Positions 4,140-36,537 of a stretch of 50,005 nt of DNA are shown in pieces. Every line of letters begins with the position of its first letter. The stretch's first letter is position 1. The notes under the pieces are model-generated. The model worked only from the letters and a program-made list of their open reading frames with translations. It searched no databases and had not been told where the DNA came from. The translations under genes were made by a program, and so were the position numbers. The stretch is from an uncultured Treponemataceae bacterium. Its GTDB lineage: Bacteria > Spirochaetota > Spirochaetia > Treponematales > UBA12059. The stretch spans positions 1 to 50,005 of the forward strand of contig CAZNNA010000001.1 of assembly GCA_964573825.1 (NCBI GenBank), in the 5' to 3' direction.

Positions 4140-4193
4140 TTGACAGTTTCGCGAGACCATTGTAGTCTGTTCACCGAACAATATTCGGCGAAC
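4140..4193 (+). promoter_or_regulatory. candidate sigma70-type promoter (TTGACA-17-TAGTCT) plus inverted-repeat operator GTTCACCGAA-N5-TTCGGCGAAC, likely the TetR site
   Basis: Lies in the AT-rich divergent intergenic region. TTGACA at 4140-4145. The 10-nt arms at 4169-4178 and 4184-4193 are reverse complements with 1 mismatch. Confidence 0.45.
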
Positions 4194-4249
4194 GTGTTAC
4201 GGCGAATCCTGCCGTGCCACTGTAGCCTAGCTTCCCGTAAGGAGTATAT

Positions 4250-5785
4250 ATGGCTGATTACGATGTGGTCGTCATAGGCGCCGGCAACGGCGGACTATCG
4301 GCGGCGCTCACCGTGGCCCAGGCGGGGTCGCGGGTACTGCTCCTGGAGCGGCACAACATACCCGGCGGCTGCGGCACGAGCTTCCGGCGAGGCCGCTTCG
4401 AATTCGAGGTCGCCCTGCACCAGCTCAGCTCCATGGGTAGCCCGCAGAAGCCCGGCCCGCTCCGCGAGCTCTTCAGGAAGTACGGCATAGAGCAGGGCAT
4501 TGACTGGATACCGATCGATACGCTCTTCAAGGTCAACCTGCCGGGCGGCCTATCCGTATCCATACCCGCAGACCGGGCCGAGGCCGAGAAGGCGCTATCG
4601 GGGCGCTTCCCCGCGGAGGCGAGCGCCATAGCCGCCTACTTCGACCTGGTCTACCGCTTCAGCAAGGAGAGCGCCGACTTCATGGCCGCGAGCGCCGCCT
4701 CCAAGGGCGAGCCCTCCGCGCTCAAGAAGCTCCTGACCAAGGCGCTCTTCGCCAAGAAGTACCCGGCCCTGGCCGGCTACGGCCTCAAGAGCAGCCAGGA
4801 GGTGCTCGACGAGTTCTTCGAGAGCGAGGAGCTCAAGCGCTGCCTGGACGCCTACTGGTGCTTCATGGGCATGCCGCCCGACCGCTTCCCCTTCTCCATC
4901 CTGGCCCGCTGTACCTCCATCTATATCGAGGACAAGCCCTACTACCTGCGCGGCGGCTCGCAGGTAATCAGCCAGGCGCTGGCGGAGGCCATACGCAGGC
5001 ACGGCGGCGAGCTGCGCTTCAACTGCGGCGTCAAGAAGATACTCCTCGATAACGGCGCGGCCGTCGGCGTCGTCACGGACGAGGGACAGACGATTCGCTG
5101 CAAGCGCATCATATCCAACATCTCCCCGGTCCATACCTACCATAAGCTGCTCGATCCTTCCGAGGTGCCGGAGGCGGCGAGCGAGTACCTCAAGGGCTAC
5201 GCCGTGGGCATCTCGGCCCTGACCTGCTTCATCGGCCTGGACTGCCCGCCCGAGACCATAGGCTTTACAGACTCCTTCAACCTGATATACGACAGCGTCG
5301 ACGCCAACGAGTCCTTCGCCGGCGCCTACGCGCTCATGCCCGAGCGCGATCCCATCATCGCCACCAACTACACGGTGGACGACCCCTCGGTATCGCCGCC
5401 CGGGACGAGCCAGATAACCGCCGGCACGCTCAAGTACGCCCAGCCTTGGACGGAGCTATCGCCCGAGCGCTACTACGAGACCAAGTACGCGGCCGCGGCC
5501 ATGATACTGGAGCGCCTGGAGAAGCGCTTCCCCGGTATCAAGGACCATATCGAGGAGATCGAGGTAGCCACGCCGCTCACCCATATGCGCTACCTGGGGC
5601 ACCCGGGCGGAGCCATCTACGGCTTCGAGCAGGACCTGAAGTCTTCCGTCTTCTTCTTTCCCCGGGACGAGTTCATCAAGAACCTCAGCTTCGCCAGCGG
5701 CTGGGTCAACGTCTGCGGTTTCGGACCGAACTACCTGTACGGTAACGCGGTCGGTACGAGGATAGCCAACGAGGTGCGAGCATGA
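4250..5785 (+). CDS. FAD-dependent oxidoreductase of the phytoene desaturase (CrtI)-like family
   Basis: N-terminal Rossmann motif DVVVIGAGNGGLSAAL...LLLERHNIPGGC. Length 511 aa. AAGGAG RBS at 4239-4244. Confidence 0.85.
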   Translation: MADYDVVVIGAGNGGLSAALTVAQAGSRVLLLERHNIPGGCGTSFRRGRFEFEVALHQLSSMGSPQKPGPLRELFRKYGIEQGIDWIPIDTLFKVNLPGGLSVSIPADRAEAEKALSGRFPAEASAIAAYFDLVYRFSKESADFMAASAASKGEPSALKKLLTKALFAKKYPALAGYGLKSSQEVLDEFFESEELKRCLDAYWCFMGMPPDRFPFSILARCTSIYIEDKPYYLRGGSQVISQALAEAIRRHGGELRFNCGVKKILLDNGAAVGVVTDEGQTIRCKRIISNISPVHTYHKLLDPSEVPEAASEYLKGYAVGISALTCFIGLDCPPETIGFTDSFNLIYDSVDANESFAGAYALMPERDPIIATNYTVDDPSVSPPGTSQITAGTLKYAQPWTELSPERYYETKYAAAAMILERLEKRFPGIKDHIEEIEVATPLTHMRYLGHPGGAIYGFEQDLKSSVFFFPRDEFIKNLSFASGWVNVCGFGPNYLYGNAVGTRIANEVRA

Positions 5786-6948
5786 AGAGCATGAAGGAAA
5801 TCATCATCGGTCGGATGGTCCACGGCGAGGAGACCCTCGAGGAGATCCGCTACGTGCGCAAGAGCCGCGGCGACTATAGCGGCGAGCGGACGCGGAGCGC
5901 CGACATCGTCGGCAGGCTGCACCGCGACTCGCTCAGGCTGCGCGTCTCCGAGATCATCGAGGAGACCAAGGACGTCAAGTCCTTCCGGCTCGTCTCGGCC
6001 GACGGCTACCTGCCGCCCTTCGAGGCCGGCCAGTACGTGAATATCTTCACGGAGATAGGCGGCGTTCGCACGAGCCGTCCGTACAGCATATCCTCGTCGC
6101 CCAGGCAGCGGGCGTATTACCAGATCACCGTGGGGCGCATCCCCAAGGGCTTCGTCTCCGACTACTTCCTTGACAAGGTCGCCGTGGGCGCCGAGTTCGA
6201 GGCCAACGGGCCGGCGGGCTGCTTCCGTTACAATCCCCTGTCCCACAGGCGCAAGCAGCTCTTCCTGGCCGGCGGCACCGGTATCACGCCGTTCATGAGC
6301 ATGCTATCGGAGGCGCTCGATCGCGGCGTCGATAGGGATGCCGTACTCATCTATGGCGTTCGTAGCCAGGAGCTGGCGATCTTCGACGAACGGCTCAGGG
6401 ACTACGCGGCTCGCCATCCCAACTTCTCCTATCACCTCGTGGTGTCGGACGAGAGCGCCTGCTGGGACGGGCGCAAGGGCTTCATAGACGCTCGCTGCAT
6501 AGCCGAGCTGGTGCCGGACTATAAGGAGCGCACCGCCTATATCTGCGGGCCTTCCGTCATGTACGAGTTCTGCGTCAAGGAGCTGCGCGCGCTGGGCATG
6601 GCCGAGAAGGATATCAGGCGCGAGATGTTCGGCGCCCGCCAGGACATCCAGAACGAGCCCGGCTGGCCGCGCGAGCTCCGCGGCACGGAGACCTTCAAGC
6701 TGAGGGTCGGTAAGGACCGCGTCGTCGAGGCCAAGTCAGGCGAGTCCCTCCTCGTGGCGCTCGAGCGGTCCGGCGTCCGCATGAACGTCTGCTGCCGCTC
6801 TGGCGAGTGCAGCCTCTGCAGGGTCAGGCTCGTGTCCGGCAAGGTGTTCCAGCCCCGGGGCGTCCTCCTCAGGCTAGCCGACGAGAAGTACGGCTACGTG
6901 CATTCATGCAAGTCGTATCCCATAAGCGACGTAGAGATCCTGTTGTGA
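5782..6948 (+). CDS. ferredoxin-NAD(P) reductase-like flavoprotein with C-terminal plant-type 2Fe-2S domain
   Basis: RPYSISS FAD motif, GGTGITP NAD(P) motif and C-terminal CRSGECSLCRVRL 2Fe-2S motif. ATGA overlap with the upstream gene. Confidence 0.85.
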   Translation: MKSMKEIIIGRMVHGEETLEEIRYVRKSRGDYSGERTRSADIVGRLHRDSLRLRVSEIIEETKDVKSFRLVSADGYLPPFEAGQYVNIFTEIGGVRTSRPYSISSSPRQRAYYQITVGRIPKGFVSDYFLDKVAVGAEFEANGPAGCFRYNPLSHRRKQLFLAGGTGITPFMSMLSEALDRGVDRDAVLIYGVRSQELAIFDERLRDYAARHPNFSYHLVVSDESACWDGRKGFIDARCIAELVPDYKERTAYICGPSVMYEFCVKELRALGMAEKDIRREMFGARQDIQNEPGWPRELRGTETFKLRVGKDRVVEAKSGESLLVALERSGVRMNVCCRSGECSLCRVRLVSGKVFQPRGVLLRLADEKYGYVHSCKSYPISDVEILL

Positions 6949-6962
6949 TGGAAGGAGTCGAC

Positions 6963-7766
6963 ATGAAGACCAAGGCTTTCTTGCCGGGCCTGGGACGAAC
7001 GGGCCTCTGGGCTCTCGCCACCCTCGCCATAGGCGGCGTGAGCATCCTGACCTCGTTCCAGCCTCTCTGGGCTAACATACCCTTCAATATCGTTGCGCCT
7101 ATCCTGGTGCTCATCTTCCTGAAGACGGTGTTCTTCGAGAAGCTCAAGCTGTCCACCCTGATCGTCATGCGGGCCCTGATAGTCGTGGCGGTCCTGGGCT
7201 TCATTCCCGGGCCGACCTACGTGACCGTAGTGCTGGCCTTCCTGGTCATCAACATTCTCGAGGCGACGCTGACCGACCTCAAGAAGGGCAAGGTCTGGAA
7301 CGCCGTGAGCGGCCTGGCCCTCGCGGCCTCGGTCTTCCTGTTCTTCGGGGGCACGAGCGCCTGGATCGACCCCGATTCCTGGTACGGCCCCTACTACACG
7401 GCAGACGCCCGTACCGGCCTGGCCACGGTCTGCTGGATCATCGCGTACACGATATGGAACTGGCTCTTCGTCACCCACGAGTTCAGCCCGTCTATAGCCT
7501 TCCTGCACGTCGGCATACTCGCAGTTCCGCTGGTCGGGATGATCGGCTTCGCCGACCCCGGCCTCTGGCTGATCCTCCGGGCGAACAGCCTGACCGTCGG
7601 CGGCGTCCTGCAGATCTCGTGCAAGGCACGGCTCGAGGAGCGCCTGGAGAGCGAGCGCATGGCCGGCATCGTGGCCGCCGTCGGGAAGCGGGGGCCGCAG
7701 GTCGTCCTGATGATCCTGAACCTCGCGCTCATCGGCGCGCCCCTGGTCCTAGGGCTGGCGCGCTAG
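6963..7766 (+). CDS. polytopic membrane protein, paralogue of the next gene
   Basis: Multiple hydrophobic helices. GGAAGGAG RBS before the ATG at 6963. Shares INILEA/LNIAEA, WNAVSGLA/WNVMNGVAG and WIIAYTIWNWLF/WIVAYGLWNLSY with 7841..8764. The upstream part of the 6807 ORF overlaps the previous gene and is rejected. Confidence 0.7.
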   Translation: MKTKAFLPGLGRTGLWALATLAIGGVSILTSFQPLWANIPFNIVAPILVLIFLKTVFFEKLKLSTLIVMRALIVVAVLGFIPGPTYVTVVLAFLVINILEATLTDLKKGKVWNAVSGLALAASVFLFFGGTSAWIDPDSWYGPYYTADARTGLATVCWIIAYTIWNWLFVTHEFSPSIAFLHVGILAVPLVGMIGFADPGLWLILRANSLTVGGVLQISCKARLEERLESERMAGIVAAVGKRGPQVVLMILNLALIGAPLVLGLAR

Positions 7767-7840: not shown

Positions 7841-8764
7841 ATGTTTTTCTTTCAAGGCTACACCCCCGCCTCCCTGGCGGCCGCGGTCGGCTTGCTCGCC
7901 GCCCTCCTCCTCGTGAACGAGGTGACGCGAAGAAGCCGCGTCGCTAGCGCGCTCGCCTACGTCGTCGTTCCCGTCGCCTTCACGCTCTTCCTATGGCCGA
8001 GGACGGCAGGCGGCGGCTCCAACTCGGGTTACTGGTTCGCCTGGGTCAAGACCTACTCGGCGCTGGCGGGCGTCGTGGGCTTCATGCTCATTCGCTACGT
8101 CAAGCGCCTCCAGGACAAGCGCGTCGCGCTGGCCTTTCCCGCCTTCATACTCATCCTCAATATCGCCGAGGCCATCTATCGCGAGTTCGAGATCAGCGCG
8201 CTGCGCGGCGTCGTACAGAACGGCCTTATGCTAGAGGGCGGCGCGTGGAACGTCATGAACGGCGTGGCCGGCATTCTGCTCGTGCTTTCCATGAGCGGCT
8301 TCCTGGGCATTCGCGTCGCCAAGACCAAGAGCCAGGACATGGTCTGGCCGGATCAGCTGTGGTTCTGGATCGTAGCCTACGGTCTCTGGAACCTGTCCTA
8401 TTGCTATAACTGCATATCCAATAGGTCGTTCTACGCCGGCTTCGTGCTGCTCGTCGCGGGAACCCTGGCCGACTTCGTTATCAGGCAGGGCGCCTGGCTC
8501 CAGCATCGGGCCCAGACCCTGGCGCTGTTCGCCATGTTCTCGCTGACCTATCCGGGCTACGCCGACATGGCGATATTCTCCATAACCTCGACGCAAGCCG
8601 CGGCTCCCAAGCTGGCGCTGGCGATAGCGTCCCTGGCGTTCAACGCGGCGGTCTTCGCCTACCAGGTCTACTCGGTGGTTCGCTCGCGGAAGAATCCGCT
8701 CACGCAGGATATCCACGCGAGGCTCGCGGCCTATAGGAAGGCGCTATCGGTTAACGGGCTGTAG
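7841..8764 (+). CDS. polytopic membrane protein, paralogue of 6963..7766 (possibly a DUF5692-like family, from memory)
   Basis: Hydrophobic profile. GAAAGGAAGG RBS before the ATG at 7841. The upstream 129 codons of the ORF are Arg/Pro-rich out-of-context sequence. Confidence 0.7.
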   Translation: MFFFQGYTPASLAAAVGLLAALLLVNEVTRRSRVASALAYVVVPVAFTLFLWPRTAGGGSNSGYWFAWVKTYSALAGVVGFMLIRYVKRLQDKRVALAFPAFILILNIAEAIYREFEISALRGVVQNGLMLEGGAWNVMNGVAGILLVLSMSGFLGIRVAKTKSQDMVWPDQLWFWIVAYGLWNLSYCYNCISNRSFYAGFVLLVAGTLADFVIRQGAWLQHRAQTLALFAMFSLTYPGYADMAIFSITSTQAAAPKLALAIASLAFNAAVFAYQVYSVVRSRKNPLTQDIHARLAAYRKALSVNGL

Positions 8765-9680: not shown

Positions 9681-10904
9681 CTAGCGCGCGCTCGCCCCTG
9701 CCTTTCCCGCAGCCGCGCCGCTGGCCGCTCCGTTGGCCGCCACCCTCGCCAGGGTCTCGTAGACCGTCGATACGCTCGACTTGCGGAGCATGTAGTAGTC
9801 CTTGCCGGCCTCCTTGCAGTCCTTCTTGACCCGAAGGCAGGCGGCGTGGCTGTTGACGTCCACGGGACAGAGCACGACGTCCGCCTGGCTGATGAGCGAG
9901 GGTAGTTCCTGGCTGTGGCAGTCCCCGTCGTGGTAGAGGAAGGAGCCGTTCATCTTGTTGACGACGTCGCGGTAGAAGCCCTTGAGCCTATCGAGGCCTC
10001 CGACCACGAGGACCCGGCGCTCGCAGAGGTCGCAGCCGAGACCGTCGGCCTGGCGGACCTTTCCGGAGTGGCAGGAGGTGCCACCATCCGGAGAGGCGAG
10101 GCAGCCGAGCGCGCAGGCGCCTCGCGCGGCCCGGGCTCGCGCCACCGCGGAGAAGAAGGCGTCCATATCGCGCTTGGCCTCGAGGCGCCACTCGTTCTCG
10201 TGCCGTTCAATGGCCTGGAGGCGCCTGACCTCGTCGCGGAGGGCGAAGGCCTCGCGCCTCAGGGCCTGGGCCTCCGCCTCGAGGGCTTCGTTCTGGGCCC
10301 TGAGCGCCGAGGCGTCCGTACCGGCTGCGGGCCTCGCCGGCTCGGCTCGTACGGAACAGCTGACTCGGTGAAGCTTCTCGAGTTCCTTCTGGGTATCCTT
10401 AAGCCGTCGCCTGTAATCATCCCTGGCCGCGGCTAGCCTTTCCTCGCGCTTCGCGGCTGCCGCTAGCTCCGCCTCGGCGCGCTCGAGCTCGTCCCTCAGG
10501 GAGTGCGCGTACATATGGACGAGGCCGTAGAGCCTATCGTTTTCCTTTTTACCGAAGCGCGCGTACTTGGCCGTGATCCAGATGAAGGCGCCGTAGCCCG
10601 TCGCGCAGAGCAGCTCCTCCACCGCGGCCAACCACGAGCCGAGCTCGACGTGGCGCGCCCGGTCGAGCTCCTTGGCGTGCTTGGCGTCCAGGAGTCGCTC
10701 CACGCGAGAGGCGGCCGCGCCCTCCCGTACGCCTAGCTCCTTGACGAGCCATTCATGGAGGGCGATGCCTTCGAGGCGCGGCGCGGGGGCCGCTACTGAC
10801 CGTCGGTGGACGCTCCTCCGCTCTTCCTCGCTCAGGCAGAATCCTACTATCGGACAGAAGTAGGCTCGGTCTATGTCCCATATCCGTCTCTCCGCCTCTA
10901 GCAT
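9681..10904 (-). CDS. DUF2325-like protein with central coiled coil and Cys-rich segment
   Basis: C-terminal VLVVGGLDRLKGFYRDVV...VVLCPVDVNSHAA...KKDCK resembles DUF2325 (from memory). Preceded by the Cys cluster CALGC...C...CDLC. AAGGAGAG RBS before the ATG at 10904; the ORF-track GTG at 10925 is less likely. Confidence 0.75.
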   Translation of the reverse strand: MLEAERRIWDIDRAYFCPIVGFCLSEEERRSVHRRSVAAPAPRLEGIALHEWLVKELGVREGAAASRVERLLDAKHAKELDRARHVELGSWLAAVEELLCATGYGAFIWITAKYARFGKKENDRLYGLVHMYAHSLRDELERAEAELAAAAKREERLAAARDDYRRRLKDTQKELEKLHRVSCSVRAEPARPAAGTDASALRAQNEALEAEAQALRREAFALRDEVRRLQAIERHENEWRLEAKRDMDAFFSAVARARAARGACALGCLASPDGGTSCHSGKVRQADGLGCDLCERRVLVVGGLDRLKGFYRDVVNKMNGSFLYHDGDCHSQELPSLISQADVVLCPVDVNSHAACLRVKKDCKEAGKDYYMLRKSSVSTVYETLARVAANGAASGAAAGKAGASAR

Positions 10905-10953
10905 CGCTCTCTCCTTGCTTGACACGGGTAGTCCGTGCGGGTATCATAAGAAT

Positions 10954-10972
10954 GATAATGATTATCATTATC
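10954..10972. promoter_or_regulatory. Fur box in the divergent promoter region
   Basis: GATAATGATTATCATTATC matches the classical 19-bp Fur consensus GATAATGATAATCATTATC at 18/19 positions. It sits in the only AT-rich stretch between the two divergent genes. Confidence 0.7.
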
Positions 10973-11000
10973 ATAATAAGGCATGTCAAGGAGTCTCGAT

Positions 11001-11435
11001 ATGAGCGTACTTAAGGTTATCTACTGGAGCGGTACGGGTAATACCAAGGCCATGGCCGAGGCCGTGGCCAAGGGGGCCCGGGCGGCGGGCGCGACCGCCC
11101 AGCTGCTCGACGTCTCCGGCGTCGACGCGGCCAAGGCCCTGGAGGCCGACGCCTTGGCCCTGGGTTGCCCCGCGATGGGCGCGGAGGTGCTCGAGGAGGC
11201 TGAGATGGAACCCTTCGTCTCGGCGCTCGAGTCCGCCGGCCTCGGAGGCAAGCGCCTCGGGCTCTTCGGCTCCTATGACTGGGGCGACGGTCAGTGGATG
11301 CGCGAGTGGAAGGAGCGTATGGAGAAGGCCGGCGCGTCGGTGCTCGGCGAGGGCGTCATGGCCAACAACGCGCCCGACGCGGCGGCCCTCGGCGCCTGCG
11401 AGGCCCTGGGCGCGGCCCTGGCCGGAAAGGCCTAG
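11001..11435 (+). CDS. short-chain flavodoxin
   Basis: VIYWSGTGNTKAMAE FMN phosphate-binding loop, LGCPAMG and FGSYDWGDGQWM. Collinear with clostridial flavodoxins. AAGGAG RBS at 10988-10993. Confidence 0.95.
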   Translation: MSVLKVIYWSGTGNTKAMAEAVAKGARAAGATAQLLDVSGVDAAKALEADALALGCPAMGAEVLEEAEMEPFVSALESAGLGGKRLGLFGSYDWGDGQWMREWKERMEKAGASVLGEGVMANNAPDAAALGACEALGAALAGKA

Positions 11436-11440
11436 GCCCC

Positions 11441-12070
11441 ATGACGGAAGGCGCGGTCCCGGACCGCCTGGGCATCGAGCTCTACTATGCGCTCGATGCC
11501 TTGCCCGCGGAGGAGCATCTGTTCTCACTCATTGCGTATCATGGCGCGCCTACCGTCTCCGGGCTCAAGCCCGCGACGATGCTCTGCTTCGGGAATGGCC
11601 GCAAGGCCCTCCTGGACGCCTGGCGCGCGCGCGGCGCCTCCGCCTGCGCTGAGCTCGGGTTGGCTTGCACCGAGCTGCGCGGCGGAGAGACCGGTATCAA
11701 CGTCCTGCTCTATAGGGCCGGGGCTCTCCTCGGCGCCCTGGAGGAGCCCGAGGCGACGGCCTTGCTCCGGGAGCAGGGCTACGACGTTCCCGCCTCGCTC
11801 GAGCGCTACCTCGAGCGCCTCTCGTTCCGCTTCGCGGATGCGTGCCCGCACGAGGTCGGCGTCTTCCTGGGTATCCCCGCGGAGGACGTGCGCGGCTTCA
11901 TGCGGCACGGCGGCATGAATTGCCATTTCTGCAGCTATTGGAAGGTGTACCACGAGCCAGAGGCCGCCCGGGAGCGCTTCGCGCGCTTCGACGAGGCTCG
12001 CCGGGCGGTGGGCCGGGCCATACTCGCCGGTAGGCTCCGCGCCCCCTGGGCGGAACGAGCGAGCGCCTAA
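11441..12070 (+). CDS. DUF3793-like protein
   Basis: GAPTVSGLKPATM...CPHEVGVFLGIPAEDVRGF...C.FCSYWKVY resembles DUF3793, which I recall as often flavodoxin-adjacent. The ORF-track N-terminal extension overlaps the flavodoxin gene and is rejected. Confidence 0.7.
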   Translation: MTEGAVPDRLGIELYYALDALPAEEHLFSLIAYHGAPTVSGLKPATMLCFGNGRKALLDAWRARGASACAELGLACTELRGGETGINVLLYRAGALLGALEEPEATALLREQGYDVPASLERYLERLSFRFADACPHEVGVFLGIPAEDVRGFMRHGGMNCHFCSYWKVYHEPEAARERFARFDEARRAVGRAILAGRLRAPWAERASA

Positions 12071-12897
12071 TGAGCATACGCAAGCTGGCCGTCTACGGTA
12101 AGGGCGGTATAGGAAAGTCCACCACGGTCTCCAATCTCTCGGCGGCGCTCGCCGTGGCGGGGTATAGGGTCATGCAGATCGGCTGCGATCCCAAGTCCGA
12201 TTCCACGACCAACCTCCTGGGCGGCGAGCGCATGGCGACGGTGCTGGACGCCATGCGCGGCTCGCGCTCGGTGGTCCTTAAGGACATCGTCAGGGAGGGG
12301 TTCGGAGGCGTCCTCTGCGTCGAGGCGGGCGGACCGACGCCAGGCATAGGCTGCGCCGGGCGCGGCATCATAGCGGCCTTCGAGAAGCTCGAGGAGCTCG
12401 ACGCCTTCGGCCGCTATCGGCCGGACGTCGTCCTCTACGACGTACTCGGGGACGTCGTCTGCGGCGGCTTCGCCATGCCCATGCGCAGGGGCTACGCCGA
12501 CGAGATCGTCATAGTCAGCTCGGGCGAGATGATGGCGCTCTACGCGGCCGGCAACATCGCCGGAGCGCTGCGGAACTTCCAGGGACGGGGCTACGCGACG
12601 CTCCGGGGCCTCGTCCTCAATCGACGCAACGTCGATGACGAGCGGGCCCTAGTGGAGCGCGCGGCGTCGGAGATGGGCGCCTCCATAGTCGGCGAGGTGC
12701 CGCGCTGCGGCCTCGTGCAGGAGGCCGAGGCCGAGGGCAAGACCGTGGTCGAGCGCTTTCCCGATAGCGACATGTGCGCCGTCTATCGAGCCCTGGCCCT
12801 CGAGCTCGTGGAGGTAGAGGCCGCGCCTCAGGCCGCGCCTCAGGCCGCGCCTTTGAGCGCGCCTTTGGGCGACGGCTCCGGGGAGCTCGCCTCATGA
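12070..12897 (+). CDS. NifH/BchL/CfbC-family ATP-dependent reductase component (nitrogenase iron protein-like)
   Basis: Walker A YGKGGIGKST, switch I CDPKSDST, and both 4Fe-4S ligand contexts GIGCAGRGI and YDVLGDVVCGGFAMPMR. C-terminal AAPQ/AAPQ/AAPL/SAPL tail. TAATG overlap with the upstream gene. Confidence 0.95.
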   Translation: MSIRKLAVYGKGGIGKSTTVSNLSAALAVAGYRVMQIGCDPKSDSTTNLLGGERMATVLDAMRGSRSVVLKDIVREGFGGVLCVEAGGPTPGIGCAGRGIIAAFEKLEELDAFGRYRPDVVLYDVLGDVVCGGFAMPMRRGYADEIVIVSSGEMMALYAAGNIAGALRNFQGRGYATLRGLVLNRRNVDDERALVERAASEMGASIVGEVPRCGLVQEAEAEGKTVVERFPDSDMCAVYRALALELVEVEAAPQAAPQAAPLSAPLGDGSGELAS

Positions 12898-14243
12898 GGG
12901 CCGACGCCACCGACGAGATGACCATAGGGCGGCTGGCCGGCGATCCGGGGCGGGTCCTGGGCACGGAGGCCTCCGATTCCACGCTCCACTACTGCTCTCC
13001 GGCCCACGGAGGCTGGGGCGTCGTACGGACGGCCCTCCTCGTGCCCGAGACCTACCTGCTCTTCGCCTGCCCCGCGGCCTGCGGTCGCCACGGCGCCATA
13101 GCCGCCATCGAGCAGGGTTACAAGGACCGGGTCGGCTACCTCTGCCTGGAGGAGGACGAGATAGTCCTCGGCGGCTACGAGCCCGAGATCGAGCGCGGGG
13201 TCGGCGAGGCGCTCGCGGCCCTCAAGGCGGCCGGCCGAGCCCCCCGGGCCCTGATGCTCTGCGTGAGCTGCATAGACGACCTCCTGGCTACCGACCATGA
13301 GGCCGCCCTGGCGAGGCTGGAGGCCGAACACGGCCTGCCCGTCCGCCTGGCCCGCATGAACCCCATCATGATCGACGGGAAGCTGCCGCCGGCCCAGCGC
13401 ATCCAGCGGACCATGTACGAGTTCCTCGAGCCCGCGACTGATCGCGACGACGGCGTCCTCCTCCTCGGGAGCTTCGTTCCGCCGGCCCGCTCTTCCGAGC
13501 TCGCCCGCCTCGTCTCCGCCCTGGGCCTCGGGCCGCTGCGCCATCCGTCCTTCTACGATAGCCTCGAAGAGTTCCGCGCCTCGGCGAGAAGTCGCCGGGC
13601 CTTGGTCCTCCGGCCGGAAGGCGCCGCGGCGGCCGCCTATGCGGAGGAGCGGCTCGGGATTTCCTGCCTGGCCGCGCCGGTGGCCTATAGCGAGGCCCTC
13701 GTGGCCGAGCGGTATCGGGCGATCGTCGACTTCCTCCTGCCCGTGGGCGCCGAGCGCGCCCTGGCCTTGGCCCTGGCGAGGCGAGGGGCCGAGGAGGCGG
13801 CCGCGGCGGCGGAGCGCGCGGCCCGCGCCCTCCTGGGCGCGCGGGTGGCTGTCGACTCGACGGTCAGCGCCTCTCCCTTCGACCTGGCCCTGGCCCTGGT
13901 CGAGGCCGGCGTCGACGTCGAGCGGATCTACGCCGAGCGCCTCCCCGCCCATGAACGAGCCTCCTTCGATCGCCTGGCCAGGCTGAGGCCAGGCCTCGTC
14001 GTCTCCAACCCGAGTCACATGAGGCGCCATGCCGGGCGGCCCGAGCGGCCCCTGGCGGACCTGGCCCTGGGCTTCGCCGCCGCCTACGCCTCCGGCGCGC
14101 CTCGGACGGTGCCCCTGGCCTTCGACGAGGGGCTCTACGGCTACGAGGGCAGGCGCCTCGTCATGGAGGCCCTCGAGGCGGCCAGCGCCGGGGACGCGCC
14201 TGACCTGGAGAGCCAGGTGCGCGACTACGGGCTCGTCGTATGA
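12894..14243 (+). CDS. nitrogenase component-1 type oxidoreductase, NifD/NifE/BchN-like subunit
   Basis: ATGA overlap with the nifH-like stop. Cys pattern YCSPAHG-x25-FACPAAC-x(63/66)-LCVSC is spaced like the NifD/NifE cluster ligands. General Oxidored_nitro-like layout. Confidence 0.8.
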   Translation: MRADATDEMTIGRLAGDPGRVLGTEASDSTLHYCSPAHGGWGVVRTALLVPETYLLFACPAACGRHGAIAAIEQGYKDRVGYLCLEEDEIVLGGYEPEIERGVGEALAALKAAGRAPRALMLCVSCIDDLLATDHEAALARLEAEHGLPVRLARMNPIMIDGKLPPAQRIQRTMYEFLEPATDRDDGVLLLGSFVPPARSSELARLVSALGLGPLRHPSFYDSLEEFRASARSRRALVLRPEGAAAAAYAEERLGISCLAAPVAYSEALVAERYRAIVDFLLPVGAERALALALARRGAEEAAAAAERAARALLGARVAVDSTVSASPFDLALALVEAGVDVERIYAERLPAHERASFDRLARLRPGLVVSNPSHMRRHAGRPERPLADLALGFAAAYASGAPRTVPLAFDEGLYGYEGRRLVMEALEAASAGDAPDLESQVRDYGLVV

Positions 14244-14256
14244 GAAAGGCGCAGCA

Positions 14257-15474
14257 ATGAGTAGGCTCCTTCAGACCCTGCCGCCCCTGTCGCCCGACTA
14301 CTCGGGCGTGGCCTCGGCCCTGCACGATCTCGGCGCGCTCACGGTCATCCACGACGCCTCGGGCTGCACCGGCACCTACGCCGGCTACGACGAGCCGCGC
14401 TGGTTCGGCAGCCGGAGCCCGGTCTTCTGTTCGGGTCTACGGGACCTGGACGCGGTCATGGGCGACGACGAGAAGCTCCTTTCCAAGCTTCGCCTGGCCG
14501 CTGCCGAGGCGCGGCCGCCCCTGGCGGCGGTGGTCGGGAGCCCCGTGCCCATGGTGGTGGGCTTCGACTTCCAGGGCTTCGCCGCGCTGGCCGAGCGCGA
14601 GACGGGCGTACCGACCCTCGGCTTCCCGGCCAACGGCCTCGGGCTCTATGACGACGGGCAGCGGGCGGCCTACGCGGCCCTCTTCGAGCGCTTCCTTCCC
14701 GACGGGATCCCGCGCGAGCCGCGGACCGTCAACCTGCTCGGCGCCTCGGCCCTCGACGGCTTCGATGACGAGGCCCTGGACCTGCTCGAGGCCCTGGCTT
14801 CCGAGGCCGGGCTCCGGCGCCTGGCCGTCTGGGGCGCCCGCTCGCCGCTCTCGGAGCTTACGAGGAGCGGGGCGGCCGCGGTCAATTGGGTCGTGACGGC
14901 CGCGGCCCTGCCCTTGGCCAGGCGGCTCCGCGAGCGCTACGGCACGCCCTTCGTCGTAGGGCTGCCCATAGGCTCCCGCGAGCGCAGGCGCCTGCTGGCA
15001 GAGCTGGCCGCTATCGGGGGCTCGGTCGGAGCGCCTCTTATGGCCAGGGAGAGGGAAGGGGAGACCCTGGCCGACGCTCGGGACGGCGAGGCCGCTCGCT
15101 CGGCGCGCCGCCGGGTCCTGGTCGTCGGCGAGCGGCTGCTCTGCGAGTCCCTGAGAGCCTGGCTCGAGGGCGAGCTCGGCCTCGGGCCCGTCGCGGTCGC
15201 CGGCTTCTTCTCCGACGACCCGTACTACGCCCGCAGAGGTTATAAAAAATATATAACAGAAGCCGAGGCCTCGAACGCGCTCCGCGAGCCGGGCCTCGAG
15301 CTCGTCATAGGGGATCCGCTCCTTTCGGGCCTCCTATCTTCGGCTCGCCTCGTACCCCTGCCGCACGCGGCCCTGTCGGGCCGCCTCTACCGGGAATCCC
15401 GCTCCCGCCTCTTCGAGGCGCGGGGCCTTGCATCGTTAACGTCTCTCCTAGGAGGTTCTCATGATTACGCATAG
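14257..15474 (+). CDS. nitrogenase component-1 type oxidoreductase, NifK/NifN/BchB-like subunit
   Basis: Starts at MSRLLQTLPPLSPDYSG. Contains HDASGCTG...VFCSGLRDLDAVMG. The third canonical Cys position reads GSPVPMVVG (no Cys). Confidence 0.75.
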   Translation: MSRLLQTLPPLSPDYSGVASALHDLGALTVIHDASGCTGTYAGYDEPRWFGSRSPVFCSGLRDLDAVMGDDEKLLSKLRLAAAEARPPLAAVVGSPVPMVVGFDFQGFAALAERETGVPTLGFPANGLGLYDDGQRAAYAALFERFLPDGIPREPRTVNLLGASALDGFDDEALDLLEALASEAGLRRLAVWGARSPLSELTRSGAAAVNWVVTAAALPLARRLRERYGTPFVVGLPIGSRERRRLLAELAAIGGSVGAPLMAREREGETLADARDGEAARSARRRVLVVGERLLCESLRAWLEGELGLGPVAVAGFFSDDPYYARRGYKKYITEAEASNALREPGLELVIGDPLLSGLLSSARLVPLPHAALSGRLYRESRSRLFEARGLASLTSLLGGSHDYA

Positions 15475-16560
15475 GACGGCCCCACGGCTCGCCCTCGTCA
15501 CCCTGCTCCTGGCCGCGGCCCTGGCCTCGGCCTTCGGGCAGGCGGGCCGGGCCGCTACCCGCGCCATAGTCGACCAGACCGGCGCCACGGTCGTCATTCC
15601 CGCCAAGGTGGAGCGGGTGGTCATCACCTCGCTCTGGCCCCTGCCCTCGGTCTTCTGCCTGGTCGACGGCTCCGGCAAGCGCCTCGTCGGCATGCATCCC
15701 GCCTCGCTCAGCGCGGCCAAGACCTCGATGCTGGCCAAGACGACGCCCTCAAGGCCTCGACCTCCTTCATGAAGGGCAGCTCGCTCAATATCGAGGAGCT
15801 CCTTAAGCTACGCCCCGACGTGGTGCTCTACAGCGCCGTCAATACCGGGGAGCGCGAGCTGCTCGAGAAGGCCGGGCTCAAGGCCGTAGGCTTCAGCACG
15901 ACGGTGGCCGAGTTCAACACCCTGGAGACGGTCGTCTCCTGGATGGATCTCCTCGGAGAGATCCTGGACAAGAAGACTCGTGCCGAGGATATCAAGCGCT
16001 ACGGCTACGAGGCCCTCGGCTCTATCTATTCCCGGACCTGGAACCTCTCCGACGCTAAGAAGCCCCGGGCGCTCATACTCTTCCGCCATAGCGATAAGGA
16101 GATTGTCGCCACGGGCAGTAACTTCTTCGGCGACTTCTGGCTACGCTCCACCGGCGCCATCAACGTGGCGGCCTCGCTCAAGGGCAACCAGCCGGTCAAC
16201 ATGGAGCAGGTCTACGCCTGGAACCCCGATATCATCTACGTGACCAATTTCAGCGCCTCCCTGCCCGAGGACTTCTACGCGGGCAAGATAGGGGGCCAAG
16301 ACTGGAGCAAGGTCGCGGCGGTCAGGAACCGCAAGGTCTACAAGTCGCCGCTCGGCCACTATCGCTGGTTCCCGCCGAGCTCCGACGCCCCGCTCATGCT
16401 GCTCTGGATGGCCACCAAGAATCAGCCGGAGCTGTTCAAGGACGTCGACTTCGAGCGGCGCCTCCGCGACTACTTCCTTCGCTTCCACGACTACCGCCTG
16501 AGCGACGAGGACATACGCTCCATCCTCAATCCGCCGCGCGAGGCCGCCGACGGTGTTTGA
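15461..16560 (+). pseudogene. periplasmic binding protein of the FecB/BtuF/HmuT class (Peripla_BP_2-like), interrupted by a frameshift near 15740
   Basis: The N-terminal part (signal peptide, ...VVITSLWPLPSVFCLVDG...HPASLSAAKTSMLAK) is in one frame. The continuation ...DALKASTSFMKGSSLNIEELLKLRPDVVLY... is in the frame of ORF 15769..16560. Together they make one normal-length binding protein. Confidence 0.75.
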
Positions 16561-17620
16561 TCCCGGTCCGGGCACGGCCGCCGGGGTCGCCGCCGGGCGG
16601 CGGTCCCGGGCGCCCGCCCTCGTCCTGGCCTTCGCCCTCCTCGGGCCCCTGGCCGTCGCCTGCCTCGGCCTCGGGCGGCTCTGGGTTCCGCCCTCGCGCA
16701 TCGTGGGCATCCTGGCGGCCAGGGCGGCTCCGTCCCTGGCTCCGACCGAGCCGGCCTGGGCCGACTTCGAGGAGGCGGTCATCATGAACGTTCGCCTGCC
16801 GCGCATCCTCATGGCCATGCTCGTGGGCGCCGGGCTCGCCCTGGCGGGAGGCGCCTTCCAGGGCCTCTTCGCCAACCCGCTGGCCACGCCCGATACCCTC
16901 GGCGTGGGGGCGGGCGCCTCCTTCGGCGCCGCCTTGGGCATACTGCTGTCGGAAAGCTTCCTCGTCGTGCAGGCCTGCTCCCTCGGCATGGGCCTCGTCG
17001 CCATGGGCCTGACCTATGCCGTCAGCAAGGTCAAGGAGCGCCGCTCCGTCCTCATGATTGTGCTGTCGGGCATAGTGACCGGCGCCTTCTTCCAGGCCCT
17101 CATCTCCCTCACCAAGTATGTGGCCGACCCGGAGACCAAGCTCCCGGCCATCACCTACTGGCTCCTCGGCAGCATAGCCGACGTGTCCTACGCCAGCATC
17201 GCCATGGGCGCGCCCGCCATCATCCTCGGCATGGCCGTCATCGTGGCGCTCCGCTGGCGGCTGGATATCCTCTCCCTGAGCGACGACGAGGCGTGGTCCC
17301 TGGGCCTCAACGTGCCAGTCCTGCGCTGGGCCGTCATAGGCGCCTCCACGCTTATCACCGCTTCCGCCGTGTCGCTCTGCGGCCAGGTCGGCTGGGTCGG
17401 CCTCGTCGTGCCGCACGCGGCCAGGATGATCGTGGGCAGCGACCACAGGACCATGATCCCGATGAGCGCGGCGCTCGGCGCCGGCTTCCTCCTCGTCGTC
17501 GACACCTTCGCGCGCTCGGCCACGGCCGCGGAGATACCGCTGTCCATCCTGACCGCCATGATAGGGGCCCCGTTCTTCGCGGCCCTCCTCAGGAAGACCC
17601 AGGGGGGCGCATGGAGCTGA
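16553..17620 (+). CDS. FecCD/BtuC-family ABC permease
   Basis: About 10 hydrophobic segments with typical FecCD sequence (RLPRILMAMLVGAGLALAGGAFQGLFANPLATPDTLGV). GTG start overlaps the upstream stop. Confidence 0.9.
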   Translation: MFDPGPGTAAGVAAGRRSRAPALVLAFALLGPLAVACLGLGRLWVPPSRIVGILAARAAPSLAPTEPAWADFEEAVIMNVRLPRILMAMLVGAGLALAGGAFQGLFANPLATPDTLGVGAGASFGAALGILLSESFLVVQACSLGMGLVAMGLTYAVSKVKERRSVLMIVLSGIVTGAFFQALISLTKYVADPETKLPAITYWLLGSIADVSYASIAMGAPAIILGMAVIVALRWRLDILSLSDDEAWSLGLNVPVLRWAVIGASTLITASAVSLCGQVGWVGLVVPHAARMIVGSDHRTMIPMSAALGAGFLLVVDTFARSATAAEIPLSILTAMIGAPFFAALLRKTQGGAWS

Positions 17621-18411
17621 GCTTTCGCGTAGAGGACGGCGCGTTCTGGTACCGCAGCGACCGGGTCCTGTTTTCCGGAGTCGGCTTCGAGCTCGGGCGC
17701 GGCGAGATAGCCGCCATACTCGGCCCCAACGGCGTCGGCAAGACGACCTTCCTGCGCTGCGCCATGGGCCTTCTCCCGTGGCGCCGGGGCCGCTCGACCC
17801 TGAACGGCCGCGACGTCCGGAGCCTGGCCCCGGGGGAGCTCTGGAGGATGGTGGCCTACGTGCCCCAGGCCCGGGCCCTGCCCTTCGCCTTCTCGGTCAT
17901 GGACGTGGCGCTGATGGGGCGGAGCGCCCACCTAGGGGCCTTCTCCCAGCCGGGTCCCGACGACCGGCGCCTGGCGGAGGCGGCGCTCGAGCGCATGGGC
18001 GTGCTTAGGCTCCGCGACAGGCCCTTCGCCGAGCTGAGCGGCGGAGAAGCCCAGATGGTCTTCATCGCCCGGGCCCTGGCGGCCCGCCCCCGGCTCATCG
18101 TCCTCGACGAGCCCGAGTCCCACCTGGACTTCCGTAACCAGCTCGTCATCCTGGGGGCGCTCCGGGATCTGGCCCGCGAGGAGGGCATAGCCTGCGTAGT
18201 CAATACGCACTTTCCCGAGCACGCGCTCCGGATAGCCGATAGGGCGCTGATCCTCGGCAAGGACGGGGCCGGCCACCGCTTCGGCCAGGCCGATGACCTC
18301 ATGGACGAGGAGACCCTCGAGGCCTTCTTCGGCGTACGCGTACGCCGACTGGATTTCTCCGACTCGGGCGAGCCGTACCGCGCGATCTATCCCCTGGAGC
18401 CCGTATGCTGA
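17611..18411 (+). CDS. ABC transporter ATP-binding protein (FepC/FecE/BtuD-like)
   Basis: Walker A GPNGVGKTT, signature LSGGEAQM and Walker B LIVLDEPE. Start overlaps the permease stop. Confidence 0.9.
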   Translation: MELSFRVEDGAFWYRSDRVLFSGVGFELGRGEIAAILGPNGVGKTTFLRCAMGLLPWRRGRSTLNGRDVRSLAPGELWRMVAYVPQARALPFAFSVMDVALMGRSAHLGAFSQPGPDDRRLAEAALERMGVLRLRDRPFAELSGGEAQMVFIARALAARPRLIVLDEPESHLDFRNQLVILGALRDLAREEGIACVVNTHFPEHALRIADRALILGKDGAGHRFGQADDLMDEETLEAFFGVRVRRLDFSDSGEPYRAIYPLEPVC

Positions 18412-19298
18412 GCCCCCGCCCCCGCGACGATTCCGCCCGCCTCTTCGCCGACCTGCGGGCCGGAACGCGCCTTAGGGTCCTCGTGGCCCCCGTAGCCCAG
18501 GCGCGCCTCCCTGAGTTTAACCGTTTCCTCGGCTACCTGCGTTCCCTCGGCGCGCTCTCCTTTCATGCCGTGCTGCCCCGGGCGGATATAGCCGCCTGGC
18601 TGTATTATAGAACGATTACTAAAAGCGATTCTCCCCTCATAGCCTCGGCCTGCGCCGGCGTGACGAGCGGACTCCGGGCGCGGGAGCACCCGGCCCTGCG
18701 TTACCTGCCGCCCATACCGAGCCCCCTCCTCTGCACGGCCATCTACCTGCGGCGCTACCTCGGCTACCGCGAGCCCTTCGCCTTTCTCTCGCCCTGCGCC
18801 CTCAAGTGGACGGAGTTCTCGCCCGGAGGCGTCGAGCTCGTCAGGTACAACGCGACCATACGCGGCATCAAGGCTCGGCTCGAGGCCGAGGGCGTGGACC
18901 TGGGGAGGTTTCCGGAGCTTTACCTGGACGACGAATCGAGGGGCTTGACCGTAGGCGCCTTCGGCGAGCTGGGCGCCTCCCTCGGCGCGGTCCTACCGGG
19001 CCTACGCTGCCTTACGTCGCACGGCCTCGGGCGCTCCCTGGCCCTGCTCGACGATCCCGCGCGCTTTCCCGGCGTCGAGGCCGAGGCCTTGGATCTCCTG
19101 GAACCCTACGCCTGTCCCGCCGGCTGCGACGGGGGCTCCGGCGTCGGGACCTGCGAGGATTGCCCCATGAAGGATGGCGCTCCCGCCTCCTCGCCGGCTC
19201 CGCGTCCTCGCCCCACGAGGGAGGAGCTTCTAGCCCTCTTCGCTCGTATGGACGACGAGCTTCGCTCGGAGGATTTTATCTACGGCTCGGTCGTGTGA
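18405..19298 (+). CDS. minimal [FeFe]-hydrogenase H-domain-like protein (Fe_hyd_lg_C-like) without accessory cluster domains
   Basis: Collinear with the H-domain of the window's own HydA. VAPVAQARL aligns with IAPAVRVAL, IASACAG with FTSCCPAW, PSPLLCTAIYLRR with MSPQAMMGSIIR, LSPCALKWTE with MPCVAKKYE, and YACPAGCDGGSG with MACPGGCVGGAG. Confidence 0.7.
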   Translation: MLSPRPRDDSARLFADLRAGTRLRVLVAPVAQARLPEFNRFLGYLRSLGALSFHAVLPRADIAAWLYYRTITKSDSPLIASACAGVTSGLRAREHPALRYLPPIPSPLLCTAIYLRRYLGYREPFAFLSPCALKWTEFSPGGVELVRYNATIRGIKARLEAEGVDLGRFPELYLDDESRGLTVGAFGELGASLGAVLPGLRCLTSHGLGRSLALLDDPARFPGVEAEALDLLEPYACPAGCDGGSGVGTCEDCPMKDGAPASSPAPRPRPTREELLALFARMDDELRSEDFIYGSVV

Positions 19299-25105: not shown

Positions 25106-25121
25106 TGGATTAATCTCCTCC

Positions 25122-26534: not shown

Positions 26535-26555
26535 GGTTCTCTCTCCTTATCGTGT

Positions 26556-28337: not shown

Positions 28338-28353
28338 GGGTGTCTCCTATCGT

Positions 28354-30177: not shown

Positions 30178-30227
30178 GGGAAGCTCCTTTCGGGATGAGG
30201 GGCGGACGGCCCCTGATGGTAGATGTT

Positions 30228-30246
30228 GATAATGAGTATCAATATC
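30228..30246. promoter_or_regulatory. Fur-like box between the transporter operon and the AraC gene
   Basis: GATAATGAGTATCAATATC matches the 19-bp Fur consensus at 16/19 positions. It lies in the AT-rich core of the 116-bp divergent intergenic region. Confidence 0.55.
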
Positions 30247-30293
30247 ATATATACTCGAGCCTGTATTGTACGAATGCGACAGATTAAGGAAGG

Positions 30294-35382: not shown

Positions 35383-35413
35383 GGCCCGGCGGCTAGGCTC
35401 GGTTCTCGGGTAG

Positions 35414-36514: not shown

Positions 36515-36537
36515 CCCCGCTCGCTCCGGTAAGCTAG

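Follow-up and report, generated by a model that had tools for sequence, protein, structure and literature searches.

What do three nitrogenase-like proteins do in a bacterium when they have neither a site for the iron-molybdenum cofactor (FeMo-co) nor genes for its maturation close by? This question is raised by a 50,005-nucleotide stretch of DNA from an uncultured Treponemataceae bacterium (assembly GCA_964573825.1, contig CAZNNA010000001.1; hereafter the window, in whose coordinates positions are given), which codes for a NifH-like ATPase and two larger subunits of the nitrogenase superfamily, referred to here by the shorthand H, D and K and collectively as HDK. The three genes are co-directional and, as confirmed by a check of open reading frames (ORFs) and sequence, lie at the coordinates claimed in an earlier sequence-based prediction (the original prediction). 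That prediction viewed the trio alone; the most informative feature of the locus is instead that the trio belongs to a single operon with a flavodoxin gene, a FecCD-type importer and a Fur box, and that its linkage to such an importer extends across phyla. On this basis HDK may be the cytoplasmic part of an uptake system that is induced by iron starvation, acting on an imported iron chelate, a proposal to which we give an even chance.

The operon comprises nine tightly packed genes, from that of the flavodoxin through to that of a Fe_hyd_lg_C-like protein (Table 1). The flavodoxin gene ends 5 nt before the DUF3793 gene, and from there to the last gene all junctions are overlapping or at most 13 nt apart, with the four genes 3′ of K each overlapping the preceding gene by 7–14 nt. 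No convincing terminator was found within the nine-gene string. The promoter and Fur box sit in a short AT-rich gap in a surrounding genome of 67–70% G+C, the box lying directly 3′ of the operon promoter −10 and also covering the −10 of the divergent promoter of the DUF2325 gene. Its chance expectation at three or fewer mismatches is 0.00 (100 shuffles of the window). The box recurs unchanged in the metagenome contig L011, which shares 99% identity with the window and was used for comparison. With a predicted Fur box overlapping its promoter, the operon is on sequence a putative member of a Fur regulon. Flavodoxin is a classic Fur target and an iron-free substitute for ferredoxin, and that of the operon is a probable low-iron electron donor to H. 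The importer is assigned to type II (the BtuCDF/FhuDBC/HmuTUV class), which all three of its components match; this class carries ferric siderophores, heme and corrinoids.

The HDK family was gathered by word-based searches, a genome scan and a full HMMER scan, and gene neighborhoods were taken from 93 loci. The D family has approximately 390 clusters at 50% identity (E ≤ 1e-30), and carriers amount to at least 111 species in the genome collection. They include termite-gut Treponema, Breznakiella, oral Treponema, Lachnospiraceae of the human gut, Tissierella and other Clostridia, as well as Synergistaceae, Syntrophomonas, Dehalococcoidia, Desulfobacteraceae, wastewater Accumulibacter, Sulfuritalea, Propionivibrio and Rhodoplanes, so that the clade is widespread, from the human gut and mouth to termite-gut spirochetes and wastewater. 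In the 93 loci, covering at least six phyla, H-D-K are accompanied by a binding-protein gene in 78, a permease gene in 75 and an ATPase gene in 75, the loci lacking importer genes being mostly cut contigs. In Sulfuritalea and Accumulibacter, HDK sits between the binding-protein and permease genes. A TonB-dependent receptor gene adjoins nine proteobacterial loci; that of Rhodoplanes has heme/hemoglobin receptors as its best models (235 bits, cut-off 317). A DtxR/MntR-type repressor gene adjoins five loci, and a Crp/Fnr-family regulator is divergently placed in 17.

Evidence for iron regulation was also sought with a Fur-box scan of 85 loci (approximately 1.2 Mb), in which only matches with three or fewer mismatches were relied on. 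All such matches fall in the promoter regions of HDK operons, namely those of the window and L011, Tissierella and Syntrophomonas. In Tissierella praeacuta, two boxes with two mismatches each lie between a gene for a Crp/Fnr-type regulator and the first gene of an operon with the order HypB/CobW-like GTPase, ABC (ATP-binding cassette) ATPase, SBP_bac_6, H, D, K, binding protein, permease and ATPase. In Syntrophomonas, a box with three mismatches lies 240 bp upstream of H; for both genomes no site was expected by chance (200 shuffles). As a weaker sign, Propionivibrio has two Fur-like sites with five mismatches just before its TonB receptor gene. The possibility that all loci have a Fur box upstream of H was rejected, since most AT-rich Firmicute promoters give 5–8 mismatches, which is indistinguishable from chance. 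In two Rhodoplanes loci (L002, 6732–6748; L033, 4718–4734), a shared 7-3-7 palindrome, TTTCGAA-CGA-TTCGAAT, lies in the promoter region from which the importer genes diverge from those of the TonB receptor and HDK, and resembles the iron control element bound by Irr in Bradyrhizobia. Heme operons of the hmuRSTUV type code for a receptor, a cytoplasmic enzyme, a binding protein, a permease and an ATPase. Taken together, the Fur box, the flavodoxin, the importer class, the TonB receptors and this hmuRSTUV-like layout argue for an uptake system induced by iron starvation.

What kind of enzyme the trio might form was addressed through its cysteine residues, whose conservation was assessed in 84 D, 78 K and 83 H sequences from non-redundant loci. 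As the original prediction had it, H keeps Walker A, switch I and both cysteine contexts; GKGGIGKST (Walker A), DPKxDST, DVLGDVVCGGF, C95 and C131 are invariant in the 83 relatives. In D and K, three cysteines are 100% conserved, namely D-C63 (in a PAAC-GRHG context), D-C126 and K-C37, which we take to be the equivalents of αC88, αC154 and βC95. D-C126 and K-C37 were placed by HMMER alignments, and D-C63 and D-C34 by motif comparison with NifD, by which D-C34 is presumably the equivalent of α62. The x25/x63 spacing put forward originally for the three NifD/NifE-type cysteines of D implies C59 as the middle ligand, which is instead C63 (100% conserved, as against 60% for C59), and C123 is not conserved. 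D-C34 itself is a cysteine in 44% of D members and elsewhere Ser, Thr or Ala. Of the 47 D proteins without it, 44 carry a cysteine at most 20 residues upstream, usually in an N-terminal M-x-C-C or C-x-C motif, and a first D thiolate is in this way available in 81 of the 84 members, which suggests from the sequences that the first cluster ligand has moved along the D chain in those lacking C34. In such proteins (L004, L008, L040–L092) the CC/C-x-C motif, where present, is found about 10 residues upstream of position 34.

K was thought to have two cysteines at P-cluster positions, which proved incorrect: it has three cysteines in total (C37, C58 and C296), and C37 alone is at a canonical position (βC95/NifN-C44). 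The HDASGC37TG stretch aligns with IACAG of NifE in the HMMER alignment, and by motif C37 presumably corresponds to NifK HGSQGC95, NifN C44 and BchB D36. C58 is a cysteine in 90% of relatives and a serine in 8 of 78; hand alignment puts it beside the 'SD..TEDAAVFGG' strand near βS115, before the D-A-[VI]-[MF]-G motif, which is no ligand position. At the β153 position K has an invariant SPVPM, the reading GSPVPMVVG given for it earlier being right and aligning with NTC(124)VPALIG of NifE, and the β70 region reads D-Y-S-G-V, with no cysteine. Four of the six P-cluster positions are therefore occupied by cysteine in the window (the equivalents of α62, α88, α154 and β95), of which three are invariant in the family. 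The position of αC275/NifE-C250 is taken by an invariant R-P-E-G (Pro) in D and by V-V-T-A (Thr) in K, and that of αH442 by F-D-E in D, in accordance with the earlier statement that no Cys275/His442 context is present. A profile alignment with a sixth conserved ligand or conserved FeMo-co ligands had been named as a refutation, and the HMMER alignments show neither.

The two-plus-one invariant cysteines with a movable fourth (D-C34 or the N-terminal CC) point to a NifEN-type 3+1 arrangement, and never to 3+3. The cysteine set of D and K fits one bridging inter-subunit [4Fe-4S] cluster, as in NifEN or dark-operative protochlorophyllide oxidoreductase (DPOR), rather than an 8Fe P-cluster; the bridging cluster had been proposed before and is retained here, its derivation from five thiolates ("3+2") is not. 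Other invariant residues are D-H66, D-H217, D-D128 and D-D129, and D14, H32, D33, D45 and E46 in K; these His, Asp and Glu residues are candidates for substrate binding or proton delivery. Pfam scans of the large ORFs of the window detected no nifB or other radical-SAM (S-adenosylmethionine) gene, no second Oxidored_nitro pair and no homocitrate synthase, and the original observation that nifB, nifE, nifN and nifV are missing from the window holds for these ORFs. Judged by sequence, HDK is a nitrogenase-like enzyme without a FeMo-co site and without maturation genes in the window.

H belongs to Fer4_NifH (PF00142, 300.5 bits), while D and K match the general Oxidored_nitro family alone, with 57 and 118 bits respectively. 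None of the three reaches a curated NCBIfam cut-off among the NifH, NifD/K/E/N, BchL/N/B/X and CfbC/D models tried. The scores of H are highest with CfbC (NF033200, 329.9 bits, cut-off 402), followed by nifH (321, cut-off 394) and BchL (TIGR01281, 198, cut-off 345). K scores 44.7 bits with NifE (TIGR01283, cut-off 505), and D is without any NCBIfam match; the nifD model TIGR01282 gives 17.6 bits (cut-off 653), the Bch model TIGR01278 26 bits (cut-off 490) and the CfbD model TIGR03282 17.6 bits (cut-off 268). D and K are distant paralogs of each other (hhalign E-value 6e-9), and NifE is the best sequence match for both, at 17–21% identity.

AlphaFold2 (AF2) models were obtained for D with a mean predicted local distance difference test score (pLDDT) of 89.0 and a predicted template modeling score (pTM) of 0.90, and for K with 83.6 and 0.88. 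Parts of low confidence are mainly limited to loops near D-C34 and K-C37, as would be expected of cluster loops when cofactor and partner are left out of the modeling. In a Foldseek search of the PDB, the top match of D was BchN (3aek_A, E-value 2.8e-15), the E-values of NifK, MarD, NifD and NifE/N being at most tenfold higher; K matched NifEN chains (9i0f_A, 9onk_B) with the best E-values and BchB with the highest template modeling (TM) scores, 0.73–0.76. Both models resemble BchN, BchB, NifE, NifN and MarD/K about equally (TM 0.6–0.76, identity 12–20%). According to these models, D is the alpha-type (N/E/D) and K the beta-type (B/N/K) subunit, and the two belong to a branch that is set deeply apart within the superfamily. 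D-K fusion proteins of 800–900 aa occur naturally in the family (P0282, P0302, P0310–P0313 and others), an argument for the D/K heterodimer being the functional unit.

From the observed gene content, operon packing, Fur box, conserved synteny, cysteine conservation and absence of P-cluster and FeMo-co ligand sets, we infer a cluster type, electron path, cargo and iron-release chemistry for HDK as follows. When iron is scarce, Fur would leave its operator and one transcript would provide flavodoxin, H, the D and K subunits of a heterotetramer, and the type II ABC importer. The importer (binding protein, FecCD permease and ATPase) would take up a metal chelate, and the H dimer would have its [4Fe-4S] cluster reduced by flavodoxin. 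Hydrolyzing ATP, H would then drive low-potential electrons to the single D/K [4Fe-4S] cluster, with D-C34, D-C63, D-C126 and K-C37 as its putative ligands, from where they would pass to the imported chelate bound in D/K. The cargo would most likely be an iron tetrapyrrole (heme), otherwise a ferric siderophore, and its reduction would free the iron without oxygen, for example via multi-electron reduction of the porphyrin ring or reduction of the chelate at a very low potential. That an H2(DK)2 nitrogenase homolog of this kind, Fur-repressed, flavodoxin-fed and ATP-hydrolyzing, strips iron from imported heme or a ferric siderophore in strictly anoxic surroundings is suggested tentatively, at somewhat less than an even chance. 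If true, it would give the nitrogenase superfamily a new biochemical role, iron release, and would offer a new explanation of how obligate anaerobes of guts, mouths and sediments gain iron from chelates without oxygenases, filling a gap in anaerobic iron and heme metabolism.

With regard to the cargo, ferric siderophores would suit a very-low-potential donor, given their redox potentials. Among the NCBIfam models, the BtuC, corrinoid and heme ones give the permease and ATPase their highest scores. The binding protein has many Trp residues and a Y-R-W motif conserved in the family, but its conserved residues could not be assigned to a ligand set for heme, B12 or a siderophore; its best solved relative is 4ovk, which has no informative name and for which no paper mentioning it was found. 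The heme-receptor motifs FRAP/NPNL were looked for in the TonB receptors, where only a generic GFRAPS, which is not diagnostic, was seen. Corrinoid importer genes of Firmicutes are commonly preceded by a cobalamin riboswitch. When the window and 16 related loci were scanned with Rfam, no cobalamin, molybdenum cofactor (Moco), NiCo or other riboswitch was detected, and a corrinoid-specific reading is down-weighted by the absence of the cobalamin type from all 17. DPOR, chlorophyllide oxidoreductase (COR) and CfbCD are characterized nitrogenase-like enzymes that reduce tetrapyrrole rings (North and Shafaat, 2026; PMC13474568). These relatives, with a weak lean to heme of the receptor, binding protein and ATPase, rank an iron tetrapyrrole ahead of a ferric siderophore.

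A number of points weigh against an iron-uptake role. A strong Fur box is found in three lineages only; most Lachnospiraceae loci are without a clear one, having a divergent Crp/Fnr-type regulator instead, and a flavodoxin is attached to the HDK operon in the lineage of the window only. The closest named solved relatives of the binding protein are MolA, a binder of molybdate/tungstate, and CeuE, which binds Ni, with weak matches only to proteins that bind heme or B12. The HypB/CobW-like metallochaperone GTPase of eight clostridial loci and the Nik/Opp-type and NicO-like genes beside spirochete loci point to Ni or Co instead of Fe. An enzyme needing three Fe-S clusters is also a costly route to iron. 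Lastly, the binding-protein gene of the window is frameshifted, from which the system may be inactive in this strain.

Several of these points would suit a metal-cofactor maturase or insertase, in which D and K serve as a NifEN-like scaffold for imported Ni, Co, Mo, W or a chelate, H gives ATP-dependent electrons or delivers metal, and GTPase metallochaperones assist; we consider this unlikely, if deserving of attention. Both D and K match NifE best by sequence, the best Foldseek matches of K are NifEN chains and the binding protein resembles MolA and CeuE. In eight clostridial loci the operon is headed by genes for a HypB/CobW/UreG-type GTPase, an orphan ABC ATPase and a signal-less SBP_bac_6 protein, and upstream of and divergent from the loci of T. 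primitia (L007) and Breznakiella there are genes for a Nik/Opp-type ABC transporter, a NicO/DsbD_2-like membrane protein and a CbiA/ParA ATPase, with P-type metal ATPases nearby. Coupling of metal transport to cofactor assembly has in fact been proposed (Dos Santos et al., 2012; PMC3464626). However, such accessory metal genes are confined to particular lineages while the FecCD importer is found nearly throughout, and the equivalent of NifE Cys250 is absent. The window has no NifB/radical-SAM partner, and among the families recurring near HDK in 85 loci there was no radical-SAM/NifB, nifE/N/V or tetrapyrrole biosynthesis gene, a single weak Nitro_FeMo-Co-domain fragment being found at the edge of a Rhodoplanes locus. 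Neither a NiCo nor a Moco riboswitch was detected in the window and 16 loci, and Fur control, flavodoxin and TonB receptors suit nutrient acquisition better. Even as a maturase, HDK would represent a NifEN relative that does without NifB.

It is also conceivable, at a lower probability that we would call quite small, that HDK salvages or remodels an imported corrinoid, siroheme/F430-like compound or porphyrin, reducing ring double bonds to yield a usable cofactor rather than releasing iron. The structural likeness of D and K to BchN and BchB would agree with this, as would the high score of H with the CfbC model (329.9 bits), the BtuC, corrinoid and heme models that best fit the permease and ATPase, a CobN-like chelatase gene near the Sulfuritalea locus and a SAM methyltransferase gene between D and K of Breznakiella; the Group VI nitrogen-fixation-like (NFL) proteins have likewise been proposed to act on tetrapyrroles (Meheust et al., 2020; 10.1101/765248). 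On the other hand, all curated CfbC/D and Bch models remain below their cut-offs, genes for tetrapyrrole biosynthesis are not conserved in the neighborhood, the 17 loci scanned lack a cobalamin riboswitch, and Fur control indicates a need for iron and not for a cofactor. That HDK is a degenerate or alternative nitrogenase still reducing N2 or another small molecule is highly improbable. The H/D/K gene order and NifH-like motifs are kept, and some nitrogenase-like sets (Group IV-A Nfa) do fix N2 (North and Shafaat, 2026; PMC13474568), but cysteines are at four of the six P-cluster positions here and three are conserved family-wide, equivalents of αC275 and αH442 are absent, no nifB/E/N/V gene is among the large ORFs of the window, the nifD model TIGR01282 scores 17.6 bits where 653 are required, and with a gas as substrate there would be no reason for the fixed linkage to an importer.

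The features of the window are collected in Table 1. The start of D is the ATG at 12894, which shares the sequence ATGA with the stop codon of H; a longer, GTG-started ORF from 12774 finds no support in the N-termini of homologs.

Table 1. Features of the HDK operon and of other parts of the window.
Feature	Position	Strand	Description
Putative electron-bifurcating-type [FeFe] hydrogenase	39–3121		Nuo51-like subunit and 668-aa HydA (Fer2, Fer4 and thioredoxin-like 2Fe-2S domains)
Coiled-coil protein with C-terminal DUF2325	9681–10925	−	414 aa; divergent from the Fur-box promoter region; also in L011
Sigma-70-like promoter, TTGACA-17-TATCAT	10919–10947	+	11/12 hexamer matches; 3 sites found, 0.7 expected in shuffles
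Predicted Fur box	10954–10972		Minus strand 19/19 match to GATAATGATAATCATTATC; plus strand 1 mismatch; weaker overlapping match at 10948
Predicted divergent promoter facing DUF2325 gene	10989–10961	−	−10 covered by the Fur box
Short-chain flavodoxin	10983–11435	+	PF00258, 5.7e-21; TIGR01753, 147.5 bits (above cut-off 123)
DUF3793 protein	11441–12070	+	PF12672, 3.4e-39; stop codon overlaps H start (TAATG)
H, NifH-like ATPase, putative [4Fe-4S] electron donor	12070–12897	+	275 aa; Walker A G10–T18; cluster cysteines C95, C131
Tandem repeat in H tail	12820–12867	+	4 × 12 nt; encodes AAPQ AAPQ AAPL SAPL
D, alpha-type (BchN/NifE-like) putative catalytic subunit	12894–14243	+	449 aa; Oxidored_nitro; C63 and C126 invariant; C34 present
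K, beta-type (BchB/NifN-like) subunit	14257–15474	+	405 aa; Oxidored_nitro; C37 invariant; C58 90%; invariant SPVPM
Peripla_BP_2 binding protein	15461–16560	+	PF01497; signal peptide; split by 7-bp deletion between 15740 and 15741
FecCD permease, type II ABC importer	16553–17620	+	PF01032, 8.3e-82
ABC importer ATPase	17611–18411	+	PF00005; best NCBIfam models are F420-0, corrinoid and heme ABC ATPases, all below cut-off
Fe_hyd_lg_C-like protein, last gene of operon	18405–19298	+	297 aa; PF02906, 27.2 bits; ACPAGCxGG of the [FeFe]-hydrogenase H-domain
Transporter block	21495–30177		Four ABC_membrane/ABC_tran genes and a MatE gene (region genes 21495–31232)
Second Fur-like box	30228–30246		2 mismatches; between a minus-strand ABC_membrane/ABC_tran gene and a plus-strand AraC-family regulator gene
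G+C-rich region	33100–40050		71–74% G+C; long overlapping ORFs on both strands, none with a Pfam match

Strain-level differences between the window and L011 were seen at two places in the operon. The repeat in the C-terminal tail of H, correctly described in the original prediction as four copies of 12 nt, has only two copies in L011 (about 8200–8230), and alignment shows the tail to be absent from the other family members, so that it is not a family feature. Variation in copy number, a replication-slippage polymorphism in coding sequence, and lack in the family mark the tail as a slippage-prone, non-conserved appendage, and it was rejected as a functional feature for the same reasons. The binding-protein gene is intact in L011 (368 aa), relative to which the window has a 7-bp deletion (CGGCGCC, beside a near-repeat CGACGCC) at 15740/15741 that divides the gene into two ORFs. 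The split reflects either a true pseudogene or a mistake in the assembly.

Among the remaining genes of the operon, that for the DUF3793 protein occurs in the window and L011 only among the 93 loci; no structural relative of the protein was found, and the literature on DUF3793 found consists of one unrelated paper. The Fe_hyd_lg_C-like protein (approximately 300 aa), whose relation to the [FeFe]-hydrogenase H-domain is weak, also keeps an SPC motif and recurs beside HDK in nine non-redundant, mostly spirochaetal loci including the window (L007, 225–1124; L012, 15448–16356; L014, L020, L021, L024 and L027 among them). The [FeFe] hydrogenase encoded elsewhere in the window indicates that the organism is a fermentative anaerobe. 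Pairs of ABC_membrane-type transporter genes adjoin 16 of the 93 loci, and these and the similar transporter block of the window may mark a siderophore export or import unit. The GTPase/ABC ATPase/SBP_bac_6 head lies at 4182–7235 in the Tissierella praeacuta locus L037, and similar arrangements occur in L043, L057, L072, L075 and L084. In Breznakiella homolactica (L001) the methyltransferase gene is at 11371–12144. Proteobacterial loci, and a few clostridial ones, share near HDK three small proteins of approximately 208, 209 and 174 aa without a Pfam match (Sulfuritalea L010, 7277–9076 and 10566–14179; L002, 1657–3434); in Sulfuritalea a second TonB receptor gene and the CobN/Mg-chelatase-like gene come after them.

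How, then, does HDK compare with known systems? In NifEN, one [4Fe-4S] cluster is held between E and N by 3+1 cysteines (E-C37/C62/C124 and N-C44), to which D-C34/C63/C126 and K-C37 of the window are equivalent in position; like HDK, NifEN works with a NifH-type ATPase, and it is the best sequence match for D and K. HDK differs in having no NifE-C250 site, NifB partner or nif context, in its link to an importer and Fur, and in an identity of only 17–21%. DPOR (BchL/BchN/BchB), and by extension COR, is likewise an ATP-driven reductase of L2(NB)2 type with one inter-subunit [4Fe-4S] cluster, and has a large tetrapyrrole substrate. However, BchB has Asp36 where K has Cys37, the Bch models are far below cut-off, no bch genes are near HDK and the carriers of HDK are mostly non-phototrophs. 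Of CfbCD (Group IV-B), CfbC is the top model of H; as would apply to HDK, its cluster is a simple [4Fe-4S] one and there is no NifB, and it acts on a metallated tetrapyrrole; CfbD is a homodimer, in contrast to the two distinct subunits of HDK, and CfbCD is part of a biosynthetic pathway, whereas HDK is bacterial and importer-linked. HDK does not resemble the MAR/ISR enzymes (Groups IV-C and IV-F) in that its cysteine set is incomplete, there is no NifB-like MarB/IsrB gene and no cysteine or methionine synthesis genes are in the conserved neighborhood; MarD/K are ordinary Foldseek matches only of the D and K models.

Like HDK, the Group VI NFL proteins (NflHDK of Elusimicrobia) have highly divergent D and K subunits with at most four of the six P-cluster cysteines and no NifB or FeMo-co ligands, but these are adjoined by many radical-SAM genes (Meheust et al., 2020; 10.1101/765248), and no radical-SAM family recurs near HDK. 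This would argue against membership in Group VI, which, in a search with a hidden Markov model, was found only in Elusimicrobia, Gracilibacteria and Myxococcales (10.1101/765248), as opposed to spirochetes, Clostridia, Synergistetes and Proteobacteria for HDK. In overall layout, the closest parallel is with the hmuRSTUV/chu heme operons and the siderophore-reductase/esterase genes (fhuF, viuB, fes), in which a Fur-controlled Peripla_BP_2/FecCD/ABC importer, with a TonB receptor in Gram-negatives, is paired with a cytoplasmic iron-freeing enzyme; HDK occupies the position of that enzyme. It differs from these in being a three-protein, ATP-hydrolyzing nitrogenase homolog, and we know of no iron-release enzyme of that kind, nor did the papers searched yield one. 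No literature was found linking a nitrogenase homolog to Fur, iron acquisition, siderophores, heme or a conserved FecCD-type operon.

The genes themselves are not new, and such genes without P-cluster and FeMo-co ligand sets are already known. NifHEN-like sets with reduced cysteine sets and ABC transporters nearby have been described in Firmicutes and Archaea, with 2+1 cysteines at αC88, αC154 and βC95 or, in another clade, three cysteines in the E-like subunit (Dos Santos et al., 2012; PMC3464626). As with HDK, these consist of H and two Oxidored_nitro subunits with no FeMo-co ligands, few P-cluster cysteines and adjoining ABC transporters, in Clostridia and methanogens; the Tissierella-type order (ABC ATPase, H, D, K) matches the description of C. 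botulinum and A. oremlandii, and the loci named there, CLM_0808/9, Clos_0313/4, Mlab_1039/40 and Dhaf_1539/40, are candidate members of the HDK family (PMC3464626). Unlike here, those sets were published without function, regulation or systematic synteny (PMC3464626). What is added here is a predicted Fur box, adjoining TonB receptors, a block of six genes kept in several phyla and the apparent relocation of the first cysteine. The enzyme class is known; its physiological coupling and the testable function this implies appear to be new. A recent review recognizes Groups IV-A to IV-F, V and VI, with most clades uncharacterized, and regards the uncharacterized nitrogen-fixation-like clades as the main open problem of the field (North and Shafaat, 2026; PMC13474568). 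For one clade of unknown function, the fixed linkage to a chelate importer and the predicted Fur control turn that problem into a testable hypothesis.

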